A stretch of 64,000 bases of DNA, taken from the IMG/VR virus record IMGVR_UViG_3300025997_000005; one strand, 5' to 3'. Within the stretch, counting starts at the first letter, position 1. Each line of letters opens with the position of its first letter. The translations under genes were made by a program, and so were the position numbers. Below are positions 25,460 to 56,734 of this stretch, in pieces. The stretch comes from a virus. The notes beneath the pieces are model-generated. The model saw only the letters and a list, made by a program, of their open reading frames with translations, did no database searches and was not told the origin of the DNA.

Positions 25460-25718
25460 TAAGATAAATACAAAAATGAAAAGTAACACAGGACAATTGA
25501 TTAGATGTAGAAAATATAATATTAACAACAGCAATAGTAAAAACATCTAACAGTTATTGCTTATACAATTTGTTAGCCCAGTACGCTTTATTAGTAGAAT
25601 TTTAAATTTGGAATATTTATATATAAAATAAAGGACAAATGGAATTGAGAAAATTTATAAAAACAATAATCAAAGAATACTTAATGTCTGGTGCGGATTT
25701 TAAACAAAAAACTTTGAT

Positions 25719-27464
25719 ATGAAAAACGAACGTAGTAATAATATTTTTTTGAGCGAGGGCATTAACGTACTGTCTTTATTTGATGGCATTAGTTGTGGAC
25801 AAGTAGCTTTAGAACGTGCAGGAATTAAAGTAAATAAATACTTTGCTTCCGAGATTGACAAACACGCAATTAAGGTAACTCAAAGCAACCACCCAAATAC
25901 AAAACAGATTGGTGATGTAACCAAAGTAAAAGTAAAATTACTTTACTTATCGGAGGTTTATTCGTATATTTGCAATTATGATAACAATTTACAAAGCAAA
26001 ATTTCCGAATGGGAAATATTATATTGGCTTGACAAGAAATACGCTATGTCAACGAAAGTCGGAACACAAAAGTCGAATGAAGGACAAGAAGTACAAGAAT
26101 TTACCACTTTACAATGCATTGAGGAAATACGGTTTTCAAACAATAGTATGGGAAGTATTACTAAAGGTAGGAACAATACAGGAAGCAGAAAGAATGGAGA
26201 TGAAAATGATTGTAGAAAACCCTTTAAACTACAATGTAGCAGCTGGGGGTATGACTATGAGTTTCACACCCGAAATTTGCAAGAAAATATTAGAGAGTCA
26301 AAAGGGAGTGCCAAAGACAGATATTCAGAAAAAGAGAATATCACAAACATTGAAGAAAAGATTTCAAGACAAAAAGGAGAGGGATTTAATTTCAAAGAAA
26401 ACCAAAGAAGCGATGCGGACTCCAGAAGTGAGAAAGAAATACTTGGAGAGTCGGATGAAGATAGATTACGAAGAGAGGTCAAGAAAAAAGAAAGAGACCG
26501 AAAAGAAGAAGAGATTAATTCTATTGAAGAAATTATCAAAGAATTACAAAGATGGGATGAAGTTGACAAAATTGAAAAGAATTACTGGGATTTCTTACGA
26601 CTTCATAAGGAGGAACAAGTCACGGTGGTTGAGTATGAGGGAGGATTAAACGTATTTAAAGGAAGAATAGACCTTTTATGTGGTGGTTCTCCTTGCCAAG
26701 GATTTAGTTTTAGTGGTAAGCAATTGAACTTTGAAGACCCACGAAGTAAACTATTCTTTGAATTTGTTCGGTTGCTTAATGAAGTGAAGCCTAAATACTG
26801 GCTACTTGAAAATGTGGTAATGAAGCAAGAATACCAAGACGTAATAAGCCAACATTTGGGTGTTGAGCCAGTAAAATTGAATAGTTCTTTAACTTCTGCT
26901 CAAAACCGTGTGAGATTGTATTGGGCAAACTTCGATATTACTGAACCAACCGACAAAGGAATAGGACTTGAAGATATTTTGGAAGATACTGAAATGATTG
27001 GCCCAAGTGCGATACGTGGCAGAAGATTGAATAAAGCCACTATTTTAGGGCGTAGATTAGATGAACTAGGTAAACGACAAGATTATGACAAAACCATACC
27101 AATTACGCAATGCCTTGAAGTAAGAGCAACTAATCGAGATAAAAGTAATTGCCTTACTACCGTAGCAAAAGACACGGTTTTAACGACAATGGAAATAGGG
27201 CGACACCCTGACGCTTTTAATAGGAAATTACCATTTAGGAACTACAATAAAATTGAAAGGTGTAGGTTGATGAATTTGCCTGACAATTATTGTGATGAGA
27301 TAAGTGATAACCAAACAGTAAAAGCGACTGGTAATGGTTGGGAAGTTGGAATGATTACTCACATATTTAACCAAATGGCTGCCCAAGCAGACAAAGAGCG
27401 TGGGGAAGAAAAAAATATTATTACGGCTTATATGCACGAACCATCATTGAAAACGGGAACGTAG
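25719..27464 (+). CDS. DNA (cytosine-5)-methyltransferase with ~240-aa insertion encoded in an alternate frame of a nested endonuclease gene
   Basis: LSLFDG, SEID, GGSPCQ, ENV, QNRVRLYW, GNGW; insert between GDVTKVK and IDLLCGG. Confidence 0.85.
   Translation: MKNERSNNIFLSEGINVLSLFDGISCGQVALERAGIKVNKYFASEIDKHAIKVTQSNHPNTKQIGDVTKVKVKLLYLSEVYSYICNYDNNLQSKISEWEILYWLDKKYAMSTKVGTQKSNEGQEVQEFTTLQCIEEIRFSNNSMGSITKGRNNTGSRKNGDENDCRKPFKLQCSSWGYDYEFHTRNLQENIRESKGSAKDRYSEKENITNIEEKISRQKGEGFNFKENQRSDADSRSEKEILGESDEDRLRREVKKKERDRKEEEINSIEEIIKELQRWDEVDKIEKNYWDFLRLHKEEQVTVVEYEGGLNVFKGRIDLLCGGSPCQGFSFSGKQLNFEDPRSKLFFEFVRLLNEVKPKYWLLENVVMKQEYQDVISQHLGVEPVKLNSSLTSAQNRVRLYWANFDITEPTDKGIGLEDILEDTEMIGPSAIRGRRLNKATILGRRLDELGKRQDYDKTIPITQCLEVRATNRDKSNCLTTVAKDTVLTTMEIGRHPDAFNRKLPFRNYNKIERCRLMNLPDNYCDEISDNQTVKATGNGWEVGMITHIFNQMAAQADKERGEEKNIITAYMHEPSLKTGT
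25978..26649 (+). CDS. GIY-YIG homing endonuclease nested in the MTase gene (+1 frame)
   Basis: TIY...YYIGLT, R..EH, ALRKYG, E, YN; basic NUMOD3-like tail; TATATTTG at 25965-25972. Confidence 0.88.
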   Translation: MITIYKAKFPNGKYYIGLTRNTLCQRKSEHKSRMKDKKYKNLPLYNALRKYGFQTIVWEVLLKVGTIQEAERMEMKMIVENPLNYNVAAGGMTMSFTPEICKKILESQKGVPKTDIQKKRISQTLKKRFQDKKERDLISKKTKEAMRTPEVRKKYLESRMKIDYEERSRKKKETEKKKRLILLKKLSKNYKDGMKLTKLKRITGISYDFIRRNKSRWLSMRED

Positions 27465-27550
27465 CACTTGCAGCTAACGGTTGTGTGTATGAAACGTAGC
27501 CATAGTAAACAGTTGATATAAACCACAGACCTTGATTGGGTATGTTTTAT

Positions 27551-27763
27551 AAAGGAGCGTAAAACCCATTCATCGCTTTAGCGTGAATGGGATGTAAGCG
27601 ACAAAAAGATTTGACTTTTAAAAATAAAGTTGTATATTTTTATTAACTCTGGTTGTGGTATGCAGTCGGAGTATAAACAAAAACGGGATGAGGCGTTACC
27701 ATTAGGTGAGTCTGTGACCCCCGAAGCCCAACCCATCGCCTCTGGCGTGGGTGGGTAGTTCAC
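27551..27763 (+). mobile_element. Non-autonomous IS200/IS605 derivative inserted in an attC arm
   Basis: Near-identical to 8174-8386; follows TTAT. Confidence 0.85.
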
Positions 27764-27890
27764 GTTACATTTAAACCAAATCAAATTAAATCGGTTGATA
27801 ATGATGGAACTTGGGATATTGGGGATAATAACATTTTTTCTTAAATTTGTGTGGTGGGAGAAAAAATAAAACAATGAAAGATTTGAAACA

Positions 27891-28451
27891 ATGAAAGATT
27901 TGAAACAATTTATAAAAACAACGATGCGAGAATTTTTGAATGAGAATAGAGTTTATCATTTATCCGATAATCCAAATTTAAAAATTGATAAAAACTATAA
28001 CCCGAAACAAGGACAATTGGGTAAAGGTTTTTATGTAACAAAAAATATTGATGATTGGGGTATAGAATCTATTGGAAAACGTGATTATATATATGTAATA
28101 GAAAATTTTGAGGAATTAAGAATAGCCAAACCAAATGAACAACCAAATAGGGAACAACTCGTTGATTTTGGAATTAAAAATGGGTTTTATGAAATGGATA
28201 AGGTAATTAAACCTAATGGTGATGTTGTTAAGAATTTAGATGGGAATGATTTAATTAGACCTATTGAAACTGATAAATATAAAAAATATGCAACATATAT
28301 AGACCCGATGACTGGTAGTAGTATTGATTTTTTAGAACAAGAATATTTAAAATCAAAAGGCTTTGATGGCAAAGAACCATATTATAGCAGAGATGGTCAT
28401 CAAATAATTATATGGAATTATGATAAAATCAAATTAAAAAGAATTAAATAA
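27891..28451 (+). CDS. Cassette gene: leader (FIKTTMREFLNE) + ADP-ribosyltransferase-like domain
   Basis: VYH, GKGFYVT, GFDG motifs. Confidence 0.55.
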   Translation: MKDLKQFIKTTMREFLNENRVYHLSDNPNLKIDKNYNPKQGQLGKGFYVTKNIDDWGIESIGKRDYIYVIENFEELRIAKPNEQPNREQLVDFGIKNGFYEMDKVIKPNGDVVKNLDGNDLIRPIETDKYKKYATYIDPMTGSSIDFLEQEYLKSKGFDGKEPYYSRDGHQIIIWNYDKIKLKRIK

Positions 28452-28673
28452 AGTGGGTGGGATTTTCTTTTAAATTTTTCAACCGAAATGTTGGTTAGAA
28501 CGATGAACTGAACACTTACACATAACGTTTTGCGTGTATATGCCAGGTGGCGATTAGAAGCACTTACCTTTCAATTACACAGAATGTTTGATAGAAGAAC
28601 GAATGTTGAATAAACAACAGAACTCCCACTTGCATATATACCTTGTTATAACACGTTTTTAAAAATTAAAATT

Positions 28674-29000
28674 ATGAAAAGAAATATAACCGAAACCCCT
28701 GAAAAGTGGGTAATATTAAAACTATCAAACAATTATTATAAAGTTTTTGGAACTTGGAGTGGTGATTATTTAAATGGTGACAGGTGGAAGTTAAATTCTG
28801 GAATTGAAAAAGTTGAACAAGATGCTGATTTCTATTATTTTATCGGTTTTAGCGGTAGTTGCTACAAATGTCATAAAAAGAGTTATGGAACTGCAACTTC
28901 TTATGGATTAGGTATGTTGAATAAAATAATAGAAGATAGTAATAGTCAGATTGAATTAGTTGAAGATGAGGATATTGATGATTGGTCAAATGGGTGCTAA
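28674..29000 (+). CDS. Cassette gene: phage hypothetical protein
   Basis: PEKWVIL, YYKVFGTWSG.YL.GD.WKLNSGI, GFSGSCYKC. Confidence 0.75.
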   Translation: MKRNITETPEKWVILKLSNNYYKVFGTWSGDYLNGDRWKLNSGIEKVEQDADFYYFIGFSGSCYKCHKKSYGTATSYGLGMLNKIIEDSNSQIELVEDEDIDDWSNGC

Positions 29001-29830
29001 CGTTTAGTGTATGGCAAGTAAGCCACGCACGAAACTATCAAATTACTAATAACTTAATAGAATGAACGAAACTTTAAATAACGCAGAAACCCACCATGTT
29101 TTATACACGGTGTTAGGCACAGTTTTATATCAAATTTGTGCAAAAGGAAAATATGCTTCATTTGATGGAAAAACCAAATATTATAGTAAAAACGCTTACA
29201 TTAACAAACCATCACAAGATGAAATAGATTCTTTTATTGATAAGTGCTGTAACAGTAAACATCCTAAGAATTTATATGATTTGGAAAAGGAAACAGTTGA
29301 AATATTTATTGTTGAATTGAAACTTGCTCGTTAAATAGTGTATAACGGGTTGCATATAACCTAAGTAGCGGACTTTAAAACCAAATGTTGAATATAAAAA
29401 TAAACTTGATATGAAAGAAAAATGGACAATTAACATACCTAACCCGCTATTTTGGTTATATGCTGTTATGTATCGTTTTCATAAGTGTAAATTTGAAAAT
29501 AAATTGTATGATATACCTATGGAAAACAATACAAATTTTCTAGTAACACAATGCAGATGTGGAAAAACTAATATGGTAAGAGCACACAGGGAAAGTGAAA
29601 TGTATAAGGATTGGATTAAATGATACATACCAAGTAGAACAAAATGGGCACTGCGTGTATCAAGGAACTGAAAGTGATTGTAATGAATGGCTTAAATGTC
29701 AGTTAGGGTATTGTGGCTCTCGTGCCGAATTATTAAGCACAAAACTTAATTTGGAACAATAAAGAAAAACAAAAAGAATTTTAGGGTGGAAATTTTAATT
29801 TGGAATATTTATATATATAAAGAAAATACT

Positions 29831-30418
29831 ATGAGTGAGATGAAAAACCATATTAAAACTACCTTAAAAGAATTTGTTGCTAAAATTATTAAAGAAGAAC
29901 TTGAAAATGACACATATGCTTCATTTAAAGGTGTAAAGCCATATAAAGAAAGATTATTAGATTTTAAAAATTCAATAAAAACATTCCACGATTTAGATGA
30001 TGATAAAATATTGAAATGTATTGATTTTTTTGGGTGGGAAGGATTTGAAGATGAAGAAGAAGCTTTTAAAGAATTAAAAGAAAGGGTGGAATTTTATAAA
30101 AAATTACCAAATCCTTCAATAATGTATAGAGCAGTTGGTGTTAAAAATAAAAAACTGATAGACATTGAAAATATTGGGGAACACGTTACACCATATAAAT
30201 GGGCTATTGATGGAGATATGCTTTTAATGATTGGTAGTGAGAACTGGGATAATGATGTAGTGCCTTATATAATGGAACTTAGTGTTCCTTTATCTGAAAT
30301 AGATATTATTCAAACAATAATTCAGAATTTATCATTTCCAAATGAACATGAAATAAATTTGAAAAATAAAGGAAAAGGTGCTAAATTTGTAAAAGCATAT
30401 AAATTAAAAGGTTTTTAA
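29831..30418 (+). CDS. Cassette gene: leader (IKTTLKEF...ELE) + possible ART-like domain
   Basis: ATATTTATA at 29805; MYRAV, IGEHVT, EHEI. Confidence 0.5.
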   Translation: MSEMKNHIKTTLKEFVAKIIKEELENDTYASFKGVKPYKERLLDFKNSIKTFHDLDDDKILKCIDFFGWEGFEDEEEAFKELKERVEFYKKLPNPSIMYRAVGVKNKKLIDIENIGEHVTPYKWAIDGDMLLMIGSENWDNDVVPYIMELSVPLSEIDIIQTIIQNLSFPNEHEINLKNKGKGAKFVKAYKLKGF

Positions 30419-30615
30419 AAGTGCGTTGGGAAAATTCTTTTTGTTTTTCATCACAAATGTTAAATAGAAGGACTGAACTAAGGCATGGAGCATAACGGCT
30501 GCAAATATATTGTCGTTTTAATGCAATATATTTGTTGTTAGCACCAGTACGGTAATTTAAGATAAAACTTGATTAAATGGATAATAATTAGTATATTTGT
30601 AAAAAAAATAAATTT

Positions 30616-30987
30616 ATGGAAAAACAATGGAACTGGTTTGAAAAAACCAATAAAAAAGATGCAATTAAAAATGAGTTACAACCATTAATTACTGAAATGA
30701 TTAGTGATGATGTACAGTGTTTATTTATTAGCCCACAAGTTGGCGTAATTTTAGAAGAGTGTGACAATGTGTTTATAATACCTAATGATGAAATAATCCA
30801 TCATAACGAAAATTTAACCGTAGAACATTTTTTTAATTTTTATAAAAATGATGAGCCGATAAGGGTTTACATTGATAGAAACAAAGAAGATGTTGAAATT
30901 ATTGATTTTCGTGGACATAAAGAAATTGTTAATACTTTAAGAATTGGTAGTGATGGATTTTTTACAAAATATAGCAATAAACTTTAA
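30616..30987 (+). CDS. Cassette gene, hypothetical
   Basis: Own TATATTTG promoter inside body 30537-31018. Confidence 0.65.
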   Translation: MEKQWNWFEKTNKKDAIKNELQPLITEMISDDVQCLFISPQVGVILEECDNVFIIPNDEIIHHNENLTVEHFFNFYKNDEPIRVYIDRNKEDVEIIDFRGHKEIVNTLRIGSDGFFTKYSNKL

Positions 30988-31324
30988 ATCGAAGCACTTT
31001 CGTAGTATTGGTGCTAACGGTTGGGTGTATGAGAAGGTTTGCTTGTATAAACTTTCAAATTACCACACTGTTAATAGCAAACTTTCTTATACACCTTGTT
31101 ATAACCAGTACGGTAATTTAAGATAAAACTTGATTAATTGGAAAATAATTAGTATATTTGTAAAATAATGAATTATGGAGAATAGAAGAATTATTAAAGT
31201 AGAAGTTCCAAAAGAAATTTGGGATGCACATATGTCTATTTTTAATTTTAGAAAAGATATATTAGGTGCTTGGATGGAAAGCGTTAGAAAAGTAATTAAC
31301 GAAATGACATTAACAAATTAATTT

Positions 31325-31654
31325 ATGGATAATAGTTTATTAATATTTGGTAATGAAAAACAAAATTACACTTCAGATATATTTTATATTGAAAATGATA
31401 ATGTTTATTTTACCGAAGTAAATGTTTTTAAATTAAACGGAAACATCTACGCAATAGATGATACTTGTAAAGTAGATAGAAATGATATAGTTGATGGAAT
31501 TAACAATGGTGATGATGTTATAATTAAGATAGATAGTTCTTTTTTAGTTGCAGTTATAATACCAAGGAGTTTAGAAACCAAACTAAAAAACGCAATTGAT
31601 AATGAAGATTATGAATTAGCAAAAATAATAAATGATAAAATTAAAAACAAGTAA
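31325..31654 (+). CDS. Cassette gene with C-terminal UVR (UvrB/C) motif
   Basis: LKNAIDNEDYELAKIINDKI. Confidence 0.7.
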   Translation: MDNSLLIFGNEKQNYTSDIFYIENDNVYFTEVNVFKLNGNIYAIDDTCKVDRNDIVDGINNGDDVIIKIDSSFLVAVIIPRSLETKLKNAIDNEDYELAKIINDKIKNK

Positions 31655-33036
31655 AATGGAAAATTTAACAATTAAAATCACTATTAGTGATGATGAAAAA
31701 GAAATCAAAGCTACAAACATCAATGTGGGTGATTATAAAAAAACTAAAGACTTACATGGTATCTCTTTGGTTGATGAAATGGTTAATGAATTATTATCTA
31801 CAATCGAAGCGGATAAGTAGTATTGGTTATAACGTATCGGTTGTATGGTTAGTGCGATTTAATAATAATAAACTTTAATGAAATGACAGAAGCAGAGTAA
31901 ATATTCGAAAAACACATTGGGTTAAATACTGAATTAGGTTATTTGCCTTTTGAAAGACGAACCTTTTAATTATTAACCGCCCTTTTTCTTTTATTTTTTT
32001 TGAGCGTGGGCAAATGCTTGTAAAAGCAATTATTTACAAAATAATTAAAATATTTTGCTTTTTTCTTTGGTAGTTACAAAATAAGTTATATATTTGTAGT
32101 GTAATAATTAATTAATAACAATTTAAAACACAAAATTATGAAAACTTTACATTACATCTTAAACACAAAAACAGACGAAAGCTTTGATACAATAGAAATG
32201 AAATTTTATCCTAATAATTGGGAACCTGAAATGGAAGAGGATAAAGATTATTTACAAAGCTTAATTGACGAAGACCCAGAAAAATTTAAAAACTGTATAA
32301 TCGAAACAAGAACTTTTGAATAATGGCTTACTGGTTTTTAAATAAGCAAACAAAAGAGCCGAGAATATTCTCGACTCTTTGCCTGTTATGTGTGAAGAAA
32401 TTACTGAACTTGATAAGCAAAGTTTAGAGTACCATTTTAGCAGACTGAAAAAAGAAGAATTTGAAAACGATAATTACAGAATTGTTAAGCGTAATCTTGA
32501 GAGGGGTGGAAAAAAATAAAAGAAAAAGATTAGAAGCACTAAACGTTGATACAGCACGGAATTAGGCATAAACTATATACCGTGTTGTGCAATCGTTTTA
32601 ATGTTGCACAACGTTTTTCGGCTTGGTGTCTGTTATTTTGCCTTGCAGACATTTCAAGTTTTAGATAAATTTAATAGGTAAAATAATAGCACCAAACCGC
32701 TGTTAGTGGCTGGTGCGGTAAATTAAACGAAAATGAAATTTCATAAAACAAAAGATGGTAAAAAAATTAAGTTGACTGATTTAGAAACGAATCACTTGAA
32801 AAATATCATTAAATGGATTGAACGGAAAGCAAAGGAAGGATTAACGGTAGGAATGGGCGGTGGCTCGTGTGCTGAAGATATGTGGTATGATGAGGAAACT
32901 TATTATGGCAAAGAAGCTAAAAGCCAACTTAATTTTTCAGACTACAAAGCTGAATTGAAGCGGAGAGTTAGCACTTGCCACTAACGTAGATAGGCTATGA
33001 ATAGTAAGGCGATTTTAAAACACAAAACTTTGAATT

Positions 33037-35855: not shown

Positions 35856-38586
35856 TATTGGTGCTAACGTTTAGTGTATGGCAAGTAAGCCACGCACGAA
35901 ACTATCAAATTAGTACAAACTTTAATGGCTTATTTGCTATACACTTTGTTAGCATTTCGGCTTTTGTTAAACAATAATATTTAAAAATATGAATGAATTG
36001 AACGATTGGCAAACAGAAATAACAATTGATGCTTTAAATCATTATTGGCGTTATGTTGTTGAAAAACTATCTCAGACAGACTTAGGAGATATTGAACGCA
36101 AGAATTTAGAGTTAGATAAAGAAAGAACTCATTCAACTCTACGGCATCTCGGAGCATTTTAAGCTGAATGCTAACGGTTGCAAATATAAGTAGTTATTAA
36201 CTAAACTTAATTAAAAGAGTAAAAATATTATTAAACAACAATATTTATTAAAAGTAATGAAATAATTGCTTATATTTGTTGTTATAAATATGTAAAAATT
36301 ATGTATAAAAAGAAAGAACAATTTGCAGTTTATGAAAAAGAACCTGCACATGGAAAAGATAAGAATGGTGTGATACTTGCACCATATAATACAAAAGAAG
36401 AAGCAGAAACTGCAAAGAAGCAATATGGTTATGATAACGATAATTATTATGTTGATATACTTAGGTAATAATTTTTATTATTTATAACGTTTTGTAGCTA
36501 TAAGCAGTTGCCAATAAAACTGCCTAAACTTCAAATTAATAAACAATGAAAACAAGAACAAAACGGTCTTTAAATTTAAGACAAAAGTGGCAATTGCTTA
36601 TAACCACTGTTATGAGTAGTGCGGTGTTGTTAAAAGCAAATCACATTTTATTTTGGTGGTATTATAAAAGAGTTCCAAAATTCTTTCATAAATGGACAAT
36701 TTTAAAAAGTGTTACACTACTTAAGCAAAATTATGAACACGCAGAATTTAGATATGAAGGGTTAAATGAAGTTGTTAGAAATGCTTCAAAAAGGGAAAGA
36801 GAAATGACTACTGAAATTTCTAATTTAAGATTAAAATTAATGGGAGTTTCTCAAGATGTTATTGACCCTTTAAATGAAATTTTCGGAACGAATTTAAAAG
36901 GAAAATCGACTTTTGAAAGGGATAATTAGCATTACTCATAACGGTTACGTATAAGAAACGTTGCCATTTTGAAACACGAATGTTAAACTTAAAATAAACT
37001 TGATATGAAATACGAATTTAAAATTACCGATGAAGCTGGCAATGTTTTTTTATACGATGTTAGCCGTAGTTCATCTGATGAAGAAAAAAGTTTGAATGAC
37101 TTCATTTTAGAGGCATTACAGATTTCGGAAGATAAACGTAAGCTACCATTTAAAATACAATGCCCAAACAATTTAGAAGTATATCCTTTATTAAAAATGA
37201 AGTTTGAAAACTATGGTTCGCCACTGCTCGGAGATAAGCTCGAAGCAATGCACGTAACATGGCGTGATTGAATTACGGCTAACGGACGAGTGTATGAAAA
37301 TTAGCCCATACATAGGCGTTCGGAATTATTACAAAACTTAATTAGGCTATTTTTTATACACATTGTTAGAAACCTTTTTTATTATGACAGTAGTACAAGA
37401 ATTAATTGATTATATTAAAACTTATACAAGTTTGAATGACCCTTTGAGAAATAATATAGATGCAGATATTCAAATTTGGTTGAACAAAGAGAAAAAGCAA
37501 ATAGTTGATGCCGTAAATAATGGATGTAAATCTAGGTGTAATATAGATGCTCCAAGAGATGGGGAAACTTATTATAAAGAACGTTTCTCAAATGGTGGCT
37601 AACGGACGGGTATAAACCATCGTTTTAATGTGGTTTATACCTTGTTACCTGCTGGTGCGGTTAATTAACGATAAACTTAAATTAATACACAAGTTTGAAG
37701 AAAAAAGTGGTAGAACATGTGTTGAATTCAGGATATTTTCTGATGGAAGTGGAACTATAAATGAATATGATGTTGAACTTTTTTCTTTTGATACATTAGA
37801 TTACTTAATACAATGGTTGGAAGCATAATTTTTATGTTTGCTAACGAACGAGTGTATGGGTAGTTTTTGCCCGATTAAATAAAACTGAATTATGGATAAG
37901 ATTAAAGAATTAACAGACTTTTATATGTGGATGCAAGAAAATGACTATGACCACAACATAAGAGCAAGAGTTGAAAAAAAAGCAGAAATGTACTTAAAAG
38001 GTATTAACGTAGGGCAAAAATTACCTATACACAATGTTAGCAATCTTTTATGTGGCTCTTTCGACCCTGACAATAGCACAAGCAGTGCCACTAAATGTAA
38101 ATGCGGACGTGAGAAATGTGAACACCCCAAAGCCACATAATTGTTGCTAACGGCAAGGTATAAAAACAGTAGCGACATGAAAGAAAAGATAACTGAATTA
38201 ATGGAAAGATTTGATGAAGGAAACATGTGTATAAATGACCTAGAGCAAGAGCTATTGGTTTTATACAATGTTACCCCACGTTATTCTGTTTCATTGGTAT
38301 TTGTAAACGCAAGAGAAAACCTTTTGCGATGCTTAATAACTGATGCTTCAAATGAACACGAGGCTTTAGGTAAAGCACTTGACCACTTTAAAGAAGAAAC
38401 AAAAGGTTTTAATCTAAGTATGAAAGTTGTACTCCCTGCTTATAATGTGGGGTAACGGTTTGGCTATGTGCCGTTGTGAGGTACGAGCAATGGACATATA
38501 GCCGTTGTTACCATTAGTACGGTAAAATTATTACAAAACTTTTTAATATTCCTTTTGTATTTACAAATTATTTACTATATTTGCAT

Positions 38587-38842: not shown

Positions 38843-39338
38843 TATTATTATAAATTAAGACAAAAAATAAAAAATAACGATATGAATGACTGAAGATACC
38901 AAACAGAAAGCAGTTAATTTATCTGTTTTGGTATTAGGAACTGAAAATATAAGCGGTTATATAAGCTACTTAATCAATAAGGCACATTTAGAAGCACAGA
39001 AGTAGTATTAATGGTAACGTATCGCAGCTAAACGCCTGTGTCCCGCAGGGCATGGCGTTTTAGGTGTTGTTATCTTCTGTTTTTGCGTGCGGTGGGAAAA
39101 TATATTTGTACCTGATTTGGTACTTCCAAATATTATGCGTACCTTTGTTGGTACAAGCACTAAAATATAAAGTTATGCTGAAATGTAAAAAATGCTCTTA
39201 TGAATTTGAAGTACCAAAGAATGCAATTGAACCTGTCTTTGCCATATACTGTAAAGCATGTATCAAAGAAGGTTTAAAAAAAATGGCTAAAATGCCGCTC
39301 AAAGAATACATGAAAATGACAGCTAAATCAATTGGACT

Positions 39339-39623
39339 ATGAATTTGACAGACGAGCAACTCAATGCCTTTCGCAAATTGTGGTTTATATACGGCAATGA
39401 CGGGGGGAAATGCACAATGCTTAACCATAAGCTGGTGCAAGGTTTTTACCAATACCACGAAGATAGGCGGGAAGCCTACCGAGAGGCAGAAAAGAACATG
39501 ACCGAACGCTTTGGTAAGGACAGCCCACGGCTGAAAGACCTCCCCACCGAAGAATGTTTTCAGGTATGCGGTTTGGTATTGGATGGAAAAATAGCTAAAG
39601 CGTTAGAAATAGCTAAAGAATGA
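39339..39623 (+). CDS. Cassette gene, hypothetical (GC-richer than surroundings)
   Basis: ATGA-coupled in a three-gene cassette. Confidence 0.7.
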   Translation: MNLTDEQLNAFRKLWFIYGNDGGKCTMLNHKLVQGFYQYHEDRREAYREAEKNMTERFGKDSPRLKDLPTEECFQVCGLVLDGKIAKALEIAKE

Positions 39624-39796
39624 AAGACTGGCTAAAAGAAAGACCTTGCCTTTCGCTTCGTTGTTTGGAACGTGAGGCAGGGCTTCCTACTAAAACCCTT
39701 AGCCATTACTTGCAGGGGAGGCGGGAATTGAATGAGCAACATCTTCAAAAGCTGACTCCTGTACTTGAGCGGTATGGGTGGGAAAGCAAAAATTGA
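39620..39796 (+). CDS. Small HTH protein closing a three-gene cassette
   Basis: LRCLEREAGLPTKTLSHYLQGRR (below the ORF-track length cutoff). Confidence 0.7.
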   Translation: MKDWLKERPCLSLRCLEREAGLPTKTLSHYLQGRRELNEQHLQKLTPVLERYGWESKN

Positions 39797-43127: not shown

Positions 43128-43430
43128 ATGAGAGGTGGATACACTTTAGACTGGAATGATAAAATGCTTTCAGAAAAGAAAATAACTAAAAGCACTTATT
43201 TGGTAAACAAAAAGTACATCGAATTGGACGATGCTTTAGATAAAGCTATTGATAAACTTAAAAAACATTATAGGAAACTATATAAAGCTGAAATTGAAAG
43301 TGCTGAAACGAAGGAAGATTTTGAAGCTATTAAAAACAAACTTCGTATGATGCCAGAATCTGTAGCTAAAGTTTTTATGTTTAGAGATATTATTTTAAGG
43401 GAGGAAGAAAAAATAAAAGAAAAAGATTAG
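43128..43430 (+). CDS. Hypothetical protein encoded inside an attC loop
   Basis: Between arms GGTATATGGTTTGTGCCT and AGGCATAAACTATATACC. Confidence 0.7.
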   Translation: MRGGYTLDWNDKMLSEKKITKSTYLVNKKYIELDDALDKAIDKLKKHYRKLYKAEIESAETKEDFEAIKNKLRMMPESVAKVFMFRDIILREEEKIKEKD

Positions 43431-43976
43431 AAGCACAAAACTTTTATACAGCACGGAATTAGGCATAAACTATATACCGTGTTGTAAAATCGTTTTAATG
43501 TTTTACAACGTTAAAGTATAACCGCTAGTTGGCGATTTAAAAGCGAAAATTATGGATAAAAAACAAAGTAAAATAAAAAGCACAGACGATGGATTAAGCA
43601 CTAAACCAGCCAATTACGGTTATACAGTGTTAGCCACCGTTTTTGAAAAGCACATACTCCATTTTGACATTGGGGATAGTGTTTATTTAAAAACAGACCC
43701 TGAACAATGTGAGAGACTTGTAACTGGTATAAATATTAGACAAAATGGAATTAGTTACGCACTATCACATTTGACAAACGAAAGCTATCACTATGACTTT
43801 GAAATAAGTAAAGAACGTGATATTGTAAAAGCCACTTCATCTTAAATGGTGGCTAACGGACAGGTATATGAAAAGTAGCCTAACCACAGACTTTGATATT
43901 ATGTACTGACCTTTCATAGGCTATTTTTTATATACCATGTTAGCCATATGGTGCGGTTTAATTAACGAAATTTAAA

Positions 43977-49300: not shown

Positions 49301-49749
49301 ATATTGTTAGTGTAAATGTTTGCTAACGTTTTGCAAATAAAAACAGTAAAAGATATGAAACGACAAATTTTAAAAATAGCAGATGAACTTGCCAATGATG
49401 TAATAACTACGGAACAGGCAAAAAACCTTTTATTGGTTTTATTTGATGTTAGCCACAGTACTTCTTACTTAGATGATAAGTACGAGGTTAAATGGCTAAT
49501 AAATAATACATACCAAGTAGAACAAAATGGGCACTGCGTGTATCAAGGAACTGAAAGTGATTGTAATGAATGGCTTAAATGTCAGTTAGGGTATTGTGGC
49601 TAACGTGCCGAGTATATGAAATGTAGCGTGTAAACAGCCGAAAAGCAACGATTAAGAGCTGAATTAAATAAATAGAATATTAACCAAGTGGGAAGCGAAA
49701 ACAGCTATATTTTATATACTGTGTTACCCACTTTTAAAAATAGCGGTAA

Positions 49750-50052: not shown

Positions 50053-50701
50053 CCATTTTTTATTGTGGCTAACGGTTGCGTGTATATTCAGGTTTGCTTG
50101 TAGAGACCTTGAATTATGCACAAATGCTGATGCAAACTTGAATATACACGTTGTTATGCTCTCGTTGCGGTAAATTTACTCAAACCCTTCAATCGAAGCA
50201 CTAAAAACATTTTTATTCTTTTGTGTGATGGGGAAAATAATTATATTGATTATCAACATATTAGAAAATATATTGAAAATATTTGCAAATTTATTAGGTA
50301 ATTTGAAACAAAAGTATTACCTTTGACGTATAAATTAATAAACAACTTAAAATTTAAAGGTATGACAAATTCAGAATTAAACAAATTATCAGTTGCTGAA
50401 CTTAGGGAGTTAAGAAATAGAGTAACTGAAATGCTTCAATTGAAAATGCAAATTGAAGGTAAATTAAACAAGGATGTTTTAAAATTTGGTATGACCGTTA
50501 AATATATTGGTGGTCGTGATAAAATTAAAAACGAAACTTTTGTAATCGAAAGAATTAACAAAGTGAATGCTGTTTGTAAAAGTAATGTAGATGGAAGACG
50601 TTGGAATATTAATATTGCAAACATTCAACCATGTGAAGATTTAATAGAAACAATGGGAGATGATAATTATGAACCAGAAAGTGGTTTCCAAAAATAAAAT
50701 T

Positions 50702-50887
50702 ATGGCAAAGCGAATATCATTAAAATTAACTGACAAAAATGATTGGTTAGTTGAAGCAATAAATAAGGAAATTGATGAAACGAATAGACCATCATTTAAT
50801 AATATGGTTGAAACCATTCTTGTTTCTTATTTTAAAGCGAAGGAAGAAAAGAATAAAAATGTTACCACAAATGCTAATTCGGAGTAG
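50702..50887 (+). CDS. Small ribbon-helix-helix protein closing a cassette
   Basis: KRISLKL...SFNNMVETIL. Confidence 0.6.
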   Translation: MAKRISLKLTDKNDWLVEAINKEIDETNRPSFNNMVETILVSYFKAKEEKNKNVTTNANSE

Positions 50888-50942
50888 TTCCTTAGCAATG
50901 GAGCATAACGGACAATAATAAACAATCGTAAAATTATGACTT

Positions 50943-51209: not shown

Positions 51210-51864
51210 TTTTATGTTGTTTATTTATTGTTGTGGTGTCGTTTTAATGCAGCACAACGTTAAGTATATGGCAAGTTGGGGATTAAAATGTGCTACCCTT
51301 TTAATTTGCAGAAAAGTAAATTAAAAGCACAAATGTAGTTTATTGGAATTGCGCCCCAATTTGCTATATACATTGTTAGGCGCAGTTATTTTTAAAATTA
51401 TGACAACAAAAAAATTAGTGAACTTAATGATGAAATCTTCTGACCACAATCCATATACTGGTAAGCTGTCAGAAAGTGCTAATGTATTGGCTGCAATAGA
51501 ACTTGCAAAAAAGTTTAAGGAATTTGCAGACGAAGTATATACAGACGAGGCAATGGGTATTGAAAGCAGCCAATGGGTTGAAGTGATAAACAAACTTGAA
51601 GAGAAGCGACTTAATTGCGCCTAACGGTTGGGTGTATATGTAGTAGTGGATAGAAAGAACCGAGCTTTGATTAACCACTGAACTTCATAGAAACAACTAA
51701 CGTTGATTTACAGATGAAACCACCATTACATATACACCTTGTTATGACCAGTACGGTTTATTTACCACAAAACTCGATTAGAACCACTGAACAAAACTTT
51801 TTAAAAATGTGCGGTGGGAAATTTAATTATGAATATTTATATATAAGATAAAGTATTTACTTAT

Positions 51865-52341
51865 ATGGAAAACGACAAATTAAGAAGTTTTATAAAAACG
51901 ACAATCAGAGAATTTCTAAATGAGAATGTTAAAGGTAAAACAATATACCATTTTACTGATGGTTTGGATTCATTATATTCAATTTTGAAAGGTGACTCAT
52001 TAGAATCTGGTTCATTTAATGGTATTTATGGTAAAGGATATGATAATATTTCCTTTACTTGGAATCCAAAATTATGGGATATTGAGTATGCTGGTGATAG
52101 CAATGGTAGATATAATGCAAGAATATCATTTGACTATGGTAGAATTAGTCAGAAATGGAATTTTAAACCATTTAATTACGGTATAGATGAGGAAATGGAA
52201 GAAATAGTTGAAACTGATGAAATGCACGGAATTGTTGCATATATTACAGAAATTCTTATTAGTGATGAAGAATCTATGTTAGAGATTAATAATTTGAAAC
52301 GTTCTTATCCGAATTTAAATATTAGAACAATTAAAAGGTAG
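51865..52341 (+). CDS. Cassette gene: leader (FIKTTIREFLNE) + ART-like domain
   Basis: ATATTTATA at 51833; IYHFT, L.SIL, ISFT, EMEE. Confidence 0.55.
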   Translation: MENDKLRSFIKTTIREFLNENVKGKTIYHFTDGLDSLYSILKGDSLESGSFNGIYGKGYDNISFTWNPKLWDIEYAGDSNGRYNARISFDYGRISQKWNFKPFNYGIDEEMEEIVETDEMHGIVAYITEILISDEESMLEINNLKRSYPNLNIRTIKR

Positions 52342-52466
52342 GAAATTTTTAAAAAGTTTTGAAACAAAAACCCAATTAGAACGTATAATATAGTATTGGT
52401 CATAACGTATCGCAGATATGGAGTCGATTTTTTACGGATTTAAAACACACTAAAATAATTATTATT

Positions 52467-52712: not shown

Positions 52713-53726
52713 CATTTTAATTGCCTACAACGTTGAGTATATAATTTCGTTGTTGCTTAACAGCACGACACTAACAAAATAAGATAAAGATGAAGAAAGC
52801 AAAAAGAATCCAAAAACGCAGAACCCACAACAATGAATTATATACATTGTTAACTACTGGCGTTTTACAAGAACTTAACTTTAAGGACATTGGACAGAGT
52901 GAATTTGAGTTATTTGAAAACATGAGTTATTGGATAAAGAATAGTATTTGCCTATTCTATAACACCCCAATAAATAAAGATTGGCAAGATAGCTTTTATA
53001 TAGGATATGCTGAAATGAGGCAAGGCAAATACGTTGCTGTTACTTTTAGATGGATTGATAGTGTAGAAGAACTAACTCAAATTTACGAGAGTATAACACG
53101 AAAGAAAATAGATGAGCCGATTTAACGGTTGTAGTTAACGGCTGGCGGTATGAAAAGTTGCGTTTTTAACCGCACGAACTTCTACTAACCGATGAACGTT
53201 AAATAAATGTAGAAACTTAAATATTAACCGCTGACCCCGCAATTTTTTATGACCGCTTGTTATAGTGCGTTTTCTGCGGGTAGGCATTAAAACTAATAAA
53301 ATGGCAAATTTATATGTAAAAGAAATTGGATTGCTTAATATCAAAGAAAGCAAAGAGGAAGTTTTAATTGAGCTAAAAAATGAAAATCCTGAGTGGGCTG
53401 AATATACAGTTATAGAAAGTTTTTATGGTGAAATGAGCGGAAAAACTCACACAAATGAAAAACTATTAACTATACGAACAAGAAATATAATTGCAGTTGA
53501 ATAGTGCGGTAGGAAAATGCACTATAACGGTTGGGTGTATGAGAAGGTTTGCTTGTAGAAACTTTCAAATTTACCACTACCGTTGATAGCAAACTTTCTT
53601 ATACACCTTGTTATGCTCTCGTGCCGACTTATTAAGCACAGAACTTGATTTGAAATACGAAAGAAAAACAAAAAGAATTTTAGGTGGATTTTTTTAAATT
53701 TGAATATTTATATATAAAAGAAAACA

Positions 53727-54236
53727 ATGAATGATTTGAAAAAGTTTATAGCAACCACAATAAGAGAATATTTGAACGAAACTTCAAAATCTATTGTAAC
53801 TTATAATAATGATACTGTAATTAAGAAATTTAATGACAAATATGAATTAGAAAATACTATTAAATATTTTCCAAACCATCCTAATTTATTTCCTATAATT
53901 TATAATATTAATGGAGACGAAATAGAAATTGAAAGATTAGATACTAAAAAAGCAATAAAAGAATTTAATATATTAAATAATTGGTTTAAGAAAAATCTTA
54001 AAATATCTTTTGGTTCATATTTAATGAGAGATTATACTTTCAAACATATCTATCCAGATAGACCATATCCGAAATTACCATCAGATTTTCCAAAAGAATA
54101 TAAACAAATACTTGATAAGTATCAAAAACTAATTAATGATATAATGAAAATTGTTGGTAAATATTTCTTACTTGATGTTCATTCATTAAATTTTGGATAT
54201 GATAAAAATGGAAATTTAAAAATGTTTGATATTTAA
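53727..54236 (+). CDS. Cassette gene: leader (FIATTIREYLNE) + protein kinase-like domain
   Basis: ATATTTATA at 53704; VIKK, DVHSLNFG catalytic-loop-like, MFDI. Confidence 0.65.
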   Translation: MNDLKKFIATTIREYLNETSKSIVTYNNDTVIKKFNDKYELENTIKYFPNHPNLFPIIYNINGDEIEIERLDTKKAIKEFNILNNWFKKNLKISFGSYLMRDYTFKHIYPDRPYPKLPSDFPKEYKQILDKYQKLINDIMKIVGKYFLLDVHSLNFGYDKNGNLKMFDI

Positions 54237-55587
54237 AAAATATTTAGTATCTTTGTTGTGTGTTGGTAAAATTCTTTTTGTTTTTCATCACAAATGTTAA
54301 ATCGAAGAACTGAACTAAGGCATGGAGCATAACGACTGCGTGTATGTTGTCGTTGCGGTAAATTAGTATAAACTTTAATAAATGAACGAAATGAAAAAAC
54401 TTTGGAAATGGTTATTTGGAAAACGAAAACAGCAATGCAATATACACGATGTTGTGTGTAGTGCGACCACTGAAAGGAAACCAAACCCATATATGCTGTT
54501 GTGGTATAAACAAGGTTGGAGTGAAAAAAGAATTGCTATTAATAACTCAAAGTATTGGAAATGGGAGATAGACCACAACGGTTTTCGTCCATAGCATTAC
54601 ACACAACGTTGGTAATATGAAAAGTTGGCTTTGCAGCCACTTTCAAGTTACCAAACAGTTTGATAGCCAATTTTTTATATTACGTGTTATCGCTTCGGGT
54701 TTTATTAATCTTTTAAATTAAAATATATGATAGTCAGAATTAAACTAAAATCAAAAGGAGAAACATTCACAATGATGTTTGGAAATTCTTATAAAAATTG
54801 GGAAGAGCAATTTCGTGAATATTGCTTTACTTTCAAACCAATAGAAATAATTCAAATTGAAACATCTCCTGAAAAATGGAAAGGTTGGGGAGGGTTGAAG
54901 TGGTGCAATGAAACAGAGTTTCAACACGAATTAAACCGTGAGGGTTGTCAGCAAAATGAACCAGATAATCCTAAACCAAGAAAGTATGAATATATGAGAT
55001 TCAATTCAAATCAAATTGTTTCAAATATTGCCAATAAGATTGCTCGTAGGTATCTTTAACCTGAGCGATAACGTTTTGTGGCTTTGTGTCTGTTATTTTG
55101 GCTTGCAGACACTTGCCTTTAAAGATAAATTTTATAGCCAAAATAATAGCACAAAACCACTGTTAGTGGCTGGTGCGGTAAATTAAACGAAAATGAAATT
55201 AACAGAAGAACAATTTAATGAGCAGTATGGTGAAGCAAAAGTTGTTTTCGCCTATTATTACAAGTATTCATTCTCATTTGTGGGTGAATTTGAAGGTAAA
55301 ACGATAAATATTAGTGTAGGTGGCAACGCTGATGATATTTATAGATTTGATGTTGAATCTAACAAAGAATATCAAGTAAAGGAATTAGGTATTAATTATG
55401 CCACCGTAAAAGAAGGCGAAACAACTATTGCTGAATTTACAGACGGATGGTAGCACTTGCCACTAACGGACAGGTATATGAAAAGTAGCCTGACCACAAA
55501 CTTTGATATTATGCACCGAACTTTCATAGGCTATTTTTTATATACCATGTTAGCTGTCTGGTGCGGATTTAAACGATAAACTTTGAT

Positions 55588-56421
55588 ATGGAAAACGAAC
55601 GTAGTAATAATATTTTTTTGAGCGGTGGCAAAAATGGTTTTGAAAAAACCAAGAACGTTCTTTGGTATGGAGAATGCCTTCAGTTAATGAAACAGATACC
55701 CGACCAAAGCATAAACCTTATTTGTTGTGATTTGCCGTATGGGGTGACTAAAAACAAATGGGATTCATTAATTGATTTGGATTTACTTTGGAAGCAATAT
55801 GAACGGGTAATTATTGAAAATGGTGCAATAGTTCTTTTTGGGCAGGATAAATTTTCTGCAAGGTTGATGCTCTCAAATGAAAAGCTACACAGATATAATT
55901 TGGTATGGCAAAAAACAACACCAACTGGACACTTGAATGCTAAAAAAATGCCTTTGAGAAGCCACGAAGATATATTGGTGTTCTACAAGAAATTACCGAC
56001 CTATAACCCACAAAAAACAACAGGACACGAAAGGAAGGTAAGCACCGCAAAGCATAAGCGAAACTCGAAAAAGACAACCAACTATGGTGAACACGGACTT
56101 ACTACCTATGATAGTACTGAACGATACCCAAAAAGTGTTTTGACTTTTGCAACGGATAAACAGAAATCTGCATTACACCCAACACAAAAACCACTGGAGT
56201 TGATTAAGTATCTTGTAAGAACTTACTCAAATGAAAATGATTGGGTACTTGATAATACTTGTGGAAGTAACACTACTGGTCTTGGTTGTTTTGAATTAAA
56301 CCGAAACTATATTGGAATTGAAAATGATTTTGATATGTACGAAATTTCAAAAGAGCGGGTGGGAGAAAAAAATATTATTACGGCTTATACGCACGAACCT
56401 TCAATTAAAACGGGAACGTAG
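55588..56421 (+). CDS. DNA amino-methyltransferase (N6-A/N4-C, beta class; cassette)
   Basis: DLPY, HPTQKP, VLDNTCGSNTT, YIGIE. Confidence 0.92.
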   Translation: MENERSNNIFLSGGKNGFEKTKNVLWYGECLQLMKQIPDQSINLICCDLPYGVTKNKWDSLIDLDLLWKQYERVIIENGAIVLFGQDKFSARLMLSNEKLHRYNLVWQKTTPTGHLNAKKMPLRSHEDILVFYKKLPTYNPQKTTGHERKVSTAKHKRNSKKTTNYGEHGLTTYDSTERYPKSVLTFATDKQKSALHPTQKPLELIKYLVRTYSNENDWVLDNTCGSNTTGLGCFELNRNYIGIENDFDMYEISKERVGEKNIITAYTHEPSIKTGT

Positions 56422-56734
56422 CACTTGCAGCTAACGATAAAGCTAAACACCGTCTGAGGCGGATAAATAATGAAAACTATGATAATAGAACTAACAAAAA
56501 CAGAAACACGAGCCTTGAAATGGTTGCTTCATAAAGGCATGGAAATAACCAAGAGCGACCAAAAATACGAGGTGTTTGATGCTTTGAGCCAACGACTAGC
56601 CTCAGATGGTGATTTAGCTGATGTTGTAGGGCGAAGCGAACAGTGCGCCCATCCGAGAGATAAGCGTGAGTATATAGGCTCTAATATGCTTAGATGTAAA
56701 GTTTGCGGCAAAGAGTTCAGTTAGGGCGCATTGC

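Follow-up and report, generated by a model that had tools for sequence, protein, structure and literature searches.

An A/T inverted-repeat and G-motif frame around long cargo in a phage-borne integron-like cassette array

In the window, the whole 64,000-nt stretch of virus record IMGVR_UViG_3300025997_000005, nine cassettes between 25.7 and 56.4 kb carried perfect A/T inverted repeats (IRs) of 16–20 nt, each arm being bordered on its inner side by a G-rich motif. This IR/G frame was confirmed as real and far beyond chance: 25–57 kb contained 10 IRs that were 16 nt or longer, eight of which had G-rich flanks on both inner sides, and the means in 200 Markov shuffles were 0.15 and 0, respectively. 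We propose, at about an even chance of being right, that the ends shared by such cassettes (shells) would together make up a single long attC-like hairpin of several tiers, one half each, in single-stranded DNA (ssDNA) of the + strand, with the A/T stem clamping a long cargo. No description of a cargo-framing IR/G frame was found in the literature searched, and it appears to be a new variation on integron-like cassettes. The features were as follows (IRL and IRR, left and right arms).

25685–25761, + strand: left half of shell A copy 1, with leader, ATG at 25719, IRL 25735–25750 (GTAATAATATTTTTTT) and G motif 25751–25761 (GAGCGAGGGCA)
25762–27392, + strand: cargo of shell A copy 1, a C5 DNA methyltransferase (MTase) core (PF00145)
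27393–27479, + strand: right half of shell A copy 1, with G motif 27396–27408, IRR 27409–27424, trailer, shell-supplied TAG stop and R'' (..GCTAAC)
27468–55559, + strand: array of ~45 attC-like hairpins with covarying stems, all on this strand (context)
29764–30449, + strand: shell C copy 1, with IRL 29764–29782, G motif AGGGTGG 29783–29789, cargo with its own TATTTATATATA promoter-like motif and a 195-aa ORF, G motif 30421–30430 and IRR 30431–30449
31982–32528, + strand: shell B copy 1, with IRL 31982–32000, G motif 32001–32012, cargo of a 61-aa ORF with a consensus Bacteroidota promoter at 32067, G motif 32498–32509 and IRR 32510–32528
39069–39803, + strand: end-stem cassette, with R'ext 39069–39086, G motif 39087–39097, cargo, G motif 39774–39784 and R''ext 39786–39803 (15/17 complementary)
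40921–41990, + strand: shell D, with IRL 40921–40938 (AAAAAGAATTTAAAAAAT), G motif 40939–40949 overlapping the ATG, G motif 41961–41972 and IRR 41973–41990
43085–43425, + strand: shell B copy 2, with IRL 43085–43102, G motif 43103–43113, cargo of a 100-aa ORF, G motif 43399–43407 and IRR 43408–43425
50206–50863, + strand: shell E, with IRL 50206–50222, G motif 50223–50234, cargo, G-rich stretch 50835–50846 and IRR 50847–50863
51792–52361, + strand: shell F, with IRL 51792–51808, G motif 51809–51819 (GTGCGGTGGGA), cargo of a 158-aa ORF, weak G-rich stretch 52334–52344 and IRR 52345–52361
53259–53528, + strand: small end-stem cassette, with R'ext 53259–53275, G motif 53276–53284, 79-aa ORF, G motif 53503–53513 and R''ext 53514–53528
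53663–54286, + strand: shell C copy 2, with IRL 53663–53682, GGTGGA 53683–53688, 169-aa cargo unrelated to that of copy 1, G-rich stretch 54255–54266 and IRR 54267–54286
55555–56436, + strand: shell A copy 2, with leader, IRL 55604–55619, G motif 55620–55630, N6/N4 MTase cargo (PF01555), G motif 56353–56365, IRR 56366–56381 and trailer
56792–57601, + strand: Xer/XerA-like tyrosine recombinase of 269 aa adjoining the array end (only context for the frame)

A covariance model built from nine attC-like sites gave ~45 matches on the + strand, all within 27.4–55.6 kb, and 12 of its 17 stem pairs showed compensatory changes. The sites were imperfect hairpins with R''/L''/L'/R' boxes and AAC/GTT cores in a single orientation, as in integron attC sites. 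In most cassettes, the 5' and 3' ends of the cassette itself were complementary over 9–16 nt. Shell B copy 1 occupied the loop of a very large attC-like site (L'' 31830 to R' 32582), copy 2 was in the same loop position (L'' 43026 to R' 43479), and shell A copy 2 closed the array with a terminal R'' half-site. The best match of the recombinase was the XerA-like family NF040815 (136 bits; cut-off 220), and it showed weak similarity to FimB/FimE-type invertases. Its identity as an IntI-type integrase was rejected (TIGR02249, 72 bits against a cut-off of 265; PRK15417, 32 bits against 435).

The initial annotation described an A/T inverted repeat followed, on both sides of the cargo, by a G-rich motif in the same orientation. 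This description fitted the nine cassettes, whereas at 39085/39767 and 53277/53503 the R'/R'' end-stem of the cassette served as the repeat (39069–39097/39774–39803 and 53259–53284/53503–53528). The motif GWGYGNKGG was enriched (17 occurrences, 3.3 expected), and 12 occurrences, all of them + strand, coincided with the boundary of a cassette or an IR, but its right-hand copy was more degenerate than the annotation had implied. Both the G motifs and the AATCGAAGCAC motifs were direct, not inverted. Leaders and trailers were equal in length (50–55 and 46–54 nt), and the arms were 0.3–1.9 kb apart. The frame was present in 10 of the 15 cassettes of at least 700 nt and in one of the 31 below this length (Fisher, 7e-6). 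Framed cassettes, mostly long ones, made up roughly one in four of the total, which indicated that the frame is not needed for cassette function. In the cassette at 27849/28452, the G motifs were present and the A/T flanks were direct instead of inverted. A transposon or MITE with terminal IRs was rejected, as the window held six different arm sequences, the G motifs inside the arms were direct, and arms of neighbouring cassettes were not mutually complementary.

The cassettes at 25685–27478 and 55549–56435 had been annotated as sharing both ends around a C5 MTase and an amino-MTase, and the comparison bore this out. Their left halves (25685–25761 and 55555–55630) and right halves (27393–27479 and 56350–56436) were each 92% identical by self-BLAST and pairwise alignment, and the cargoes belonged to PF00145 and PF01555. 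A GIY-YIG-like ORF (25978–26649) was located inside the first cargo in another frame. The annotated pairs 29715/53610 and 31945/43048 also had shared shells, 80–93% identical in nucleotides, around different cargoes. The shell C halves were 29716–29873 and 53615–53769 (80%) and 30421–30517 and 54258–54354 (91%), and the two proteins had only the N-terminal leader in common; the shell B halves were 31935–32014 and 43038–43115 (90%) and 32511–32615 and 43408–43512 (93%). The pairs 32702/55162 and 34719/48771, assigned to the same pattern, shared an attC-like site and the complementary ends of the cassette, but not an A/T repeat with G motifs. Homology between shells ended at the G motifs or only a few bases away from them.

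The frame was also found in ~40 IMG/VR viral contigs, in Polaribacter phages P12002L and P12002S and in Flavobacterium phage mymlan6-1. In the window and 57 related loci, shell A carried at least five types of MTase, and shells B, C and D carried two to three unrelated cargoes each. Conversely, the same cargo family recurred in different shells: three IR classes contained C5 MTases, and two each contained N6/N4 MTases and a C1-like cargo; the C5 MTase in shell D was 70% identical in nucleotides to that of shell A copy 1. These combinations supported a reassortment of shells and cargo. Because the same frame surrounded unrelated genes in many Flavobacteriia phages, it may be a sign of the way in which accessory genes, DNA methyltransferases among them, are packaged and reshuffled in these phages.

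The pairing of the arms was under selection. In homologous B-type shells, both arms had changed in a compensatory manner without any loss of pairing (CTTTTTCTTTTATTTTTTT in the window, CTTTTTCTTCTTTTTT in P12002L and CTTTTTCTTTTCTTTTTT in mymlan6-1). Arm mismatches, read on the + strand, were 7 G·T, 0 A·C and 2 others, a small count (p ~0.01–0.03) that showed a strand-specific constraint, and the attC-like stems were biased in the same way (17 G·U, 2 C·A). We also considered that the ends are shared because they encode conserved N- and C-terminal peptides of the MTases, serving as targeting or regulatory tags, with incidental complementarity. The MTase ORFs do run through both arms to the stop codon of the shell, and the tails ..HEPSxKTGT and ..EPPTLFNAQT are similar across shells. 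However, the IRR of shell A was conserved although different MTase cassettes read it in two frames (EKNIIT.. and KKILLW..), the tail overlapped a AATCGAAGCAC-type motif that was also present in non-coding loops, and the same frame was non-coding around cargoes with their own start and stop. Peptide selection cannot be the source of perfect 16–20 nt complementarity with compensating changes. Comparison of the arms thus showed a nucleotide-level constraint, and the peptide explanation, which we consider very improbable, was contradicted as the main cause.

When the circularly permuted junction of cassette D was folded as DNA, it formed one rod of ~190 nt (-38.7 kcal/mol, z -9.5) with the A/T repeat as its outer stem; the same attC-like site, taken in its array context, had a z of -1.5. 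The A/T repeat is therefore probably better read as the outer stem of an extended hairpin of the cassette's own. A shell would then be no container with a second exchange system; every cassette of the integron-like array in the phage would have such a hairpin. Counted inwards from the cassette termini, its first tier would be the end-stem of 10–16 bp between R'ext and R''ext. The second would be a symmetric region of ~50 nt per side with the AATCGAAGCAC motif on both strands, and the third would be the perfect A/T-only stem of 16–20 bp, which is the inverted repeat of the initial annotation. The G motifs (GWGCGGTGGG or AGGGTGG types) would be unpaired, in the same orientation, at the junction of stalk and cargo. 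Once formed in the single-stranded + strand, the stalk would bring together the cassette ends and the flanking attC-like hairpins, whatever the length of the cargo, and in a circularised cassette it would be one rod of ~200–300 nt. Several points weakened this clamp model: A/T-only stems are weak DNA clamps, most cassettes do without the frame, and the G motif is given no role beyond that of a boundary.

The single strand could also be RNA. In this case, the arms would pair in the transcript as a long-range 5'–3' stem bracketing the ORF, like rRNA processing stalks, and RNase III would cut the A-U duplex of 16–20 bp, or the duplex would control translation or stability. The G motifs would be single strands at the stem base facing a protein or the ribosome, and shells would be conserved as expression frames in which recombination swaps genes. 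An mRNA-level role remains a serious rival, which we regard as possible but rather unlikely. The + strand was the sense strand of every gene, so that the absence of A·C mismatches and the G·T bias of the arms fit mRNA equally well. Arms lay within ~57 nt of the start and stop codons in most well-defined cargo ORFs, including all MTase shells, where the frame supplied the ATG and the TAG or TAA and every intact cargo was in frame. No U-tract was present at the attC-like hairpins, and read-through polycistronic transcripts were thus plausible. Moreover, the frame was kept perfect in P12002L and mymlan6-1, neither of which encodes a tyrosine recombinase, and a recombinase-independent role, for example in RNA, fits this at least as well.

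On the other hand, in several cargoes the left arm was followed by a promoter of the cargo itself (32067; TATTTATATATA at 29801 and 53700), and their main transcript would miss one arm. Both arms were translated in shells A and D, where the stem would be opened by passing ribosomes. The only Rfam 15 matches at the gathering score were tRNAs, and 25400–33000 gave nothing at E≤1. The geometry also continued into the end-stem, the crossover logic of which is that of DNA recombination. A consensus TTG-N19-TAnnTTTG promoter was enclosed by the repeat in shell B copy 1 (32067), and the cassettes at 30569 and 31130 each had one within the end-stem. Stems that enclose whole transcription units point to DNA rather than RNA, and we infer that the multi-tier hairpin would form in ssDNA and its A/T stem would act as a recombination clamp.

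The initial annotation had instead proposed a second layer of exchange that swaps cargo inside shells, possibly with the G-rich motif as a recombination or priming signal. In this reading, a dedicated system would insert and excise cargo at the G motifs, by site-specific recombination between the direct motifs or by template switching or priming on ssDNA, and the A/T palindrome would be the target hairpin. The exchange of cargo within shells agreed with the reassortment above, and the motif was repeatedly the point, left and right, at which unrelated cargoes joined one and the same shell. The variable G-motif positions of shell A co-varied with cargo type, the C1-like cargo kept its AGGGTGG and AGTGCGTGGG ends in two different shells, and a GTGCGG-type motif followed the end-stem in ~18 of 40 cassettes. 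A separate machine, however, was not supported. Cargo-less shells (IRL-G-IRR or IRL-IRR) were absent from ~0.6 Mb of related loci, and a search of 241 million metagenome records for empty shell A with exact arms returned two matches, both unrelated hairpins. Long perfect palindromes are unstable, and empty shells may be unseen because the A/T palindrome left by excision would not persist. The breakpoints were not at one fixed base and varied by up to ~35 nt, P12002L and P12002S carried the same MTase with different leaders and G motifs, and no candidate enzyme was tied to the motif. With the frame retained in isolates without a tyrosine recombinase, a role of the G motif as a recombination or priming signal was not supported, and we consider a second layer unlikely. 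In the multi-tier hairpin model, cargo would be reassorted by recombination inside the conserved frame, of which the G motif would be the innermost block that is shared. A whole MTase cassette occupied different places in P12002S and P12002L, with a 72-nt attC-like duplication.

Cargo that flips at the repeats, as in the phase variation of Bacteroidota, was largely refuted and is scarcely credible. The length and spacing of the IRs were similar to those of invertons, and the adjacent recombinase resembled invertases weakly. However, the cargo had one orientation relative to leader and trailer in ~35 shell A instances (15 right junctions examined) and in all window copies. Fifteen matches to IRL joined to the reverse complement of the right G motif were ordinary right junctions on the other strand. 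The arms differed between shells, which left no single invertase site, and the flanking motifs were direct.

Clusters of attC sites without an integrase (CALINs) occur in phages such as Polaribacter phage P12002L, and an attC site of this phage recombined with IntI1 (PMC9892861). The array resembled integron cassettes in its short cassettes separated by imperfect hairpins, AAC...GTT ends, covarying stems, cassette ends that seem to travel together and MTase cassettes. Cassettes of one hairpin family carried unrelated cargo, as do cassettes with a common attC type in chromosomal integrons. In contrast to classical attC sites, which are 57–141 nt long and lie wholly 3' of the gene, the composite hairpin was ~190–300 nt and spanned both cassette ends, the conserved element reaching ~70 nt into each. 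It had two extra tiers (extended end-stem and perfect A/T stem) and G-rich flanks and sometimes supplied start and stop codons; the folding strand was the sense strand, and the neighbouring recombinase was Xer-like rather than IntI.

Several other systems were partly similar. The promoter-early stem-loops (PeSL) that Arbiol et al. reportedly described in 2010 are said to be mobile regulatory cassettes of T4-type phages. Like the shells, they are conserved short non-coding modules that flank small accessory ORFs in a hyperplastic phage region and provide homology for gene shuffling. They are, however, direct repeats of a promoter and a local stem-loop, whereas the complementarity here was long-range across the gene, with shell-specific arms inside attC-like hairpins; some leaders had consensus promoters (30569, 31130), but an A/T repeat with G motifs is something other than a promoter joined to a local hairpin. 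In rRNA processing stalks, which are RNase III substrates, IRs hundreds to thousands of bases apart also bracket a gene and pair in a single strand; the phage arms were often translated or upstream of the cargo's own promoter. The pdif modules of Acinetobacter plasmids are genes bracketed by short recombinase-type sites and shuffled by Xer enzymes. They resembled the array in their bracketing sites near a Xer-family enzyme, but a pattern search of one Flavobacteriia genome for a dif-like 11-6-11 site gave no signal above control. Retrons possess a1/a2 inverted repeats with a priming G, and the common feature was inverted repeats whose 5' arm is directly followed by a conserved ..TTAGCGAG..-like G motif. 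No reverse transcriptase was noticed in the window, however, and the phage insert differed in being a whole gene of 0.3–1.9 kb, with a further G motif beside the opposite arm.

Integron-like arrays in phages are a recent discovery, and so far they have been recognised solely as attC site clusters. In the window, about 45 attC-like hairpins lay on the + strand from about 27.4 to 55.6 kb. They ended in AAC...GTT, and 12 of 17 stem pairs showed compensatory changes. The sites were located by a covariance model, which took the place of ungapped or energy-based attC finders that produced too much noise. The first 9–16 nt of each cassette were complementary to its own last 9–16 nt and not to the ends of its neighbours. 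The recombinase and the named cassettes were as follows.

29764-30449, cassette C1 (first copy of shell C)
31982-32528, cassette B1 (first copy of shell B)
40921-41990, cassette D, with a C5 methyltransferase as cargo
53663-54286, cassette C2 (second copy of shell C)
56792-57601, Xer/XerA-like tyrosine recombinase, 269 aa

The recombinase did not satisfy the IntI models, and a search for relatives through it returned a single distant match. In the DNA comparison to isolated phages (over 20 kb), the sole near-identical match was the attC-like site at 37600-37667 (67 nt, 95.5%), and its partner was the uncultured 635-kb phage LR745206.1.

The initial annotation had described cassette shells, with matching left and right halves, around differing payloads. 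Self-comparison and alignments bore this out for three pairs. The 77 nt 5′ and 87 nt 3′ of the C5 methyltransferase at 25719-27464 also flanked the N6/N4 methyltransferase at 55588-56421 with 92% identity, and the pairs 31935/43038 and 29716/53615 likewise shared ends around different genes. In all three, shell similarity stopped at a G-rich motif, to within a few bases. Two further proposed pairs (32702/55162 and 34719/48771) did share sequence, but only the attC-like site and their own complementary cassette ends. The G motifs proposed at 39085/39767 and 53277/53503 were present without the A/T repeat, whose place was taken by the end-stem formed by the complementary cassette ends.

Nine perfect inverted repeats of 16–20 nt, almost pure A/T and with six distinct arm sequences, bracketed cargo genes with their arms 0.3–1.7 kb apart. 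A G-rich motif stood immediately inside each arm, both copies oriented alike (direct, not inverted). Between 25 and 57 kb, 10 inverted repeats of at least 16 nt were observed, 8 of them with strict G/G flanks; the means in 200 composition-preserving shuffles were 0.15 and 0, respectively. The motif GWGYGNKGG occurred 17 times vs. 3.3 expected, with 12 of the 17 on the + strand at cassette or repeat boundaries. This frame, comprising the repeat and its G motifs, went strongly with long cassettes: of the 15 that measured at least 700 nt, 10 had it, as against 1 of the 31 shorter cassettes (p = 7e-6).

The order in a framed cassette was R′ext, leader, left arm, G motif, cargo, G motif, right arm, trailer, R″ext and inter-cassette hairpin, R′ext and R″ext being the complementary ends. 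The leader (~50 nt) contained AATCGAAGCAC-like motifs, which recurred, oriented alike, in the trailer (about 46–54 nt). The two copies of shell B, B1 and B2, were placed differently, within the loop of a giant attC-like site. In methyltransferase shells the ATG was provided by the frame, and the ORF crossed both arms and ended at a conserved TAG or TAA directly before the R″ box. Non-methyltransferase cargoes came with a promoter, start and stop of their own; neither Pfam nor PHROG assigned them a function.

Most R″ boxes were preceded, a few bases 5′, by a conserved TAG or TAA (e.g., at 27462-27464, 42030-42040 and 56419-56421), in the contexts ..GTAGCAC TTGC..CTAAC and ..GTAGTATTGG.., so that any ORF entering the trailer would be stopped by the shell. 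The C5 methyltransferase at 25719-27464 held an insert of ~750 bp relative to its paralog at 40937, with the methyltransferase frame still open. The insert contained, in another frame, an ORF of 223 aa (25978-26649) with a GIY-YIG-like start (IYKAKFPNGKYYIGLT), which had no Pfam match. The cargo ORFs at 25640, 27891, 29831, 51865 and 53727 had unrelated bodies; they had in common the N-terminal leader ..LKxFIxxxIxEFL.. and, upstream of it, a TATTTATATATA motif, which would fit a targeting leader or a late-promoter module.

Exact matches to the shell-A left-junction 21-mer were found in 29 IMG/VR stretches, each time with an attC-like R′ box and the leader before it; the methyltransferases that came after it were of at least five kinds. 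In 20 of the 29, the matching right arm lay 743–1843 nt downstream and was followed by the conserved trailer. When these stretches and 26 further loci were scanned, additional arm classes arranged in the same way appeared; an inner G motif flanked 43 inverted repeats and an outer one 5. A search for arm variants anchored on the shell-A trailer GNTGATATGCACGAA gave mostly chance matches and no new shells among the matches listed. Three isolated phages also carried the frame: Polaribacter phages P12002L and P12002S, and Flavobacterium phage mymlan6-1. For P12002L, the methyltransferase cassettes have been described as an attC cluster without an integrase (PMC9892861), and the literature searched held no description of the inner frame. 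The frame is real and widespread, an elaboration of the integron-like cassettes of Flavobacteriia phages that apparently has not been described before, and it can be studied in these culturable phages.

Three arm classes contained C5 methyltransferases and two contained N6/N4 enzymes, and at least two unrelated cargoes were present in each of the shells A to D. This distribution shows free combination of shells and cargo. Cargo/shell reassortment is well supported, in line with the payload swapping proposed by the initial annotation. The frame forms a standard socket, in some cases providing the start and stop codons, for swapping unrelated anti-restriction methyltransferases and other accessory genes among many marine phages.

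The initial annotation had further proposed a dedicated second layer of exchange, with the G motif as a recombination or priming signal. This part was not sustained, and we regard such a layer as improbable. Cargo-less shells were absent from the related loci searched: there, G-rich-loop hairpins were no commoner than C-rich controls (4 vs. 4), and short-loop A/T palindromes of the shell type were not found. No cargo-less shell A was found in 241 million metagenome records, where the two matches were unrelated hairpins. Moreover, the breakpoints differed by up to ~35 nt. Between P12002L and P12002S, the same methyltransferase had different leaders, and a whole methyltransferase cassette was relocated, with a 72-nt attC-like site duplicated on both its sides. 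Neither phage encoded a tyrosine recombinase.

P12002L (L057) 2780-2851, 72-nt attC-like site
P12002S (L187) 2862-2933, 72-nt attC-like site
P12002S (L187) 3780-3851, 72-nt attC-like site

Several other roles were considered for the G motif, and inversion of the cargo between the repeats. A TAnnTTTG box adjoined it in two cases only (27819 and 54226), and a general promoter role was rejected. A Shine-Dalgarno role was also rejected, the distance to start codons ranging from -44 to over +100 nt. A dif-like reading of GGTGCGG found no dif-like site above control in one Flavobacteriia genome. Cargo was never inverted: because the inversion pattern reads the same as a normal right junction on the opposite strand, flank context was needed, and by it all 15 candidate junctions were normal.

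The arms themselves were constrained. Homologous B-type shells of three phages showed compensating arm changes with complementarity still perfect. The shell-A right arm was kept as nucleotides, yet it was translated in two frames in different cassettes, and thus peptide selection cannot explain its conservation. Arm mismatches on the + strand comprised 7 G·T, 0 A·C and 2 others (probability about 0.01–0.03), and attC-like stems were biased likewise. Together with the direct flanking motifs, these observations point to pairing in the single-stranded + strand.

The + strand is also the sense strand, which makes mRNA a real candidate for the level at which the stem acts. However, the stems enclosed complete transcription units, with a consensus promoter within the B1 repeat; promoters also lay within the end-stems of two cassettes, and both arms were translated in shells A and D. 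Rfam gave no family match. We consider action in mRNA unlikely. In the predicted fold of the circularly permuted junction of cassette D, a single rod of ~190 nt formed (DNA z -9.5), with the A/T repeat as the outermost stem and the G motifs just outside it; the attC-like site of D in its array context did not adopt this fold (z -1.5). Since C1 has lost its upstream attC, a hybrid junction (C1 3′ end plus C2 5′ end) was used for the C type, and it folded as D did (z -7.8).

The enclosed transcription units, the translated arms, the D and C folds and the association with long cargo argue for an extended hairpin. The shell would represent two halves of one extended attC-like hairpin, and its A/T tier would act as a clamp on long cargo, bringing together the flanking hairpins and the ends of the cassette. 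We give about an even chance to the frame being a structural tier of the cassette hairpin that acts in single-stranded DNA. The recombination hairpin of these cassettes would then far exceed a classical attC in size, be more structured and reach into both cassette ends.

The sharp, motif-marked cargo boundary offers a concrete place to seek the mechanism joining genes to attC-type sites. It is conceivable, though doubtful, that cassette creation left its footprint where the G motif meets the A/T stem, genes having been captured into a pre-formed hairpin apex in single-stranded + strand DNA via priming or a template switch at that motif. If so, these arrays would show readably how an ORF joins an attC-type site.

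An 11-nt loop, TCGTTTTAATG, capped short attC-like hairpins and "empty cassettes" (R′-loop-R″) at 30519-30529, 32591-32601 and elsewhere. It was identical in P12002L (L057 4139-4149 and 5040-5050), which implies sequence-specific loop recognition. Positions 29715-29720 joined a sequence like 49500-49611 (97% identical), which elsewhere enters R″, to one like that from 53615 onward, which elsewhere follows R′; it looks as if one attC-like site had been lost precisely and two cassettes fused. An IS200/IS605 pair was also present, and its 218-nt IS end or omega-RNA-like segment, ending ..GGGTGGGTAGTTCAC, was dispersed in the window; one copy split the first attC-like site of the array.

22840-24072, - strand, TnpB
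24220-24624, + strand, TnpA
8169-8386, segment copy
27546-27763, segment copy, within the first attC-like site
60098-60150, segment copy
21892-21909 and 58402-58415, further segment copies

The window was phage DNA with a GC content of ~30% and promoters of the Bacteroidota type (TTG-N19-TAnnTTTG). It contained a tRNA gene cluster and a PRPP synthetase gene. An RNA repair-like cluster (11106-14196; Tpt1-like RNA 2′-phosphotransferase, metallophosphoesterase and RNA ligase) adjoined the tRNA-rich region. Two sigma-70 family paralogs (4609-5484 and 20730-21584) shared 73% identity over the first 300 nt. The HNH-split dNMP kinase was one ORF of 535 aa (18013-19620) in which parts of the kinase were combined with an HTH domain and, internally, a NUMOD4/HNH endonuclease; this suggests an in-frame fused homing endonuclease or an intein-like insertion.
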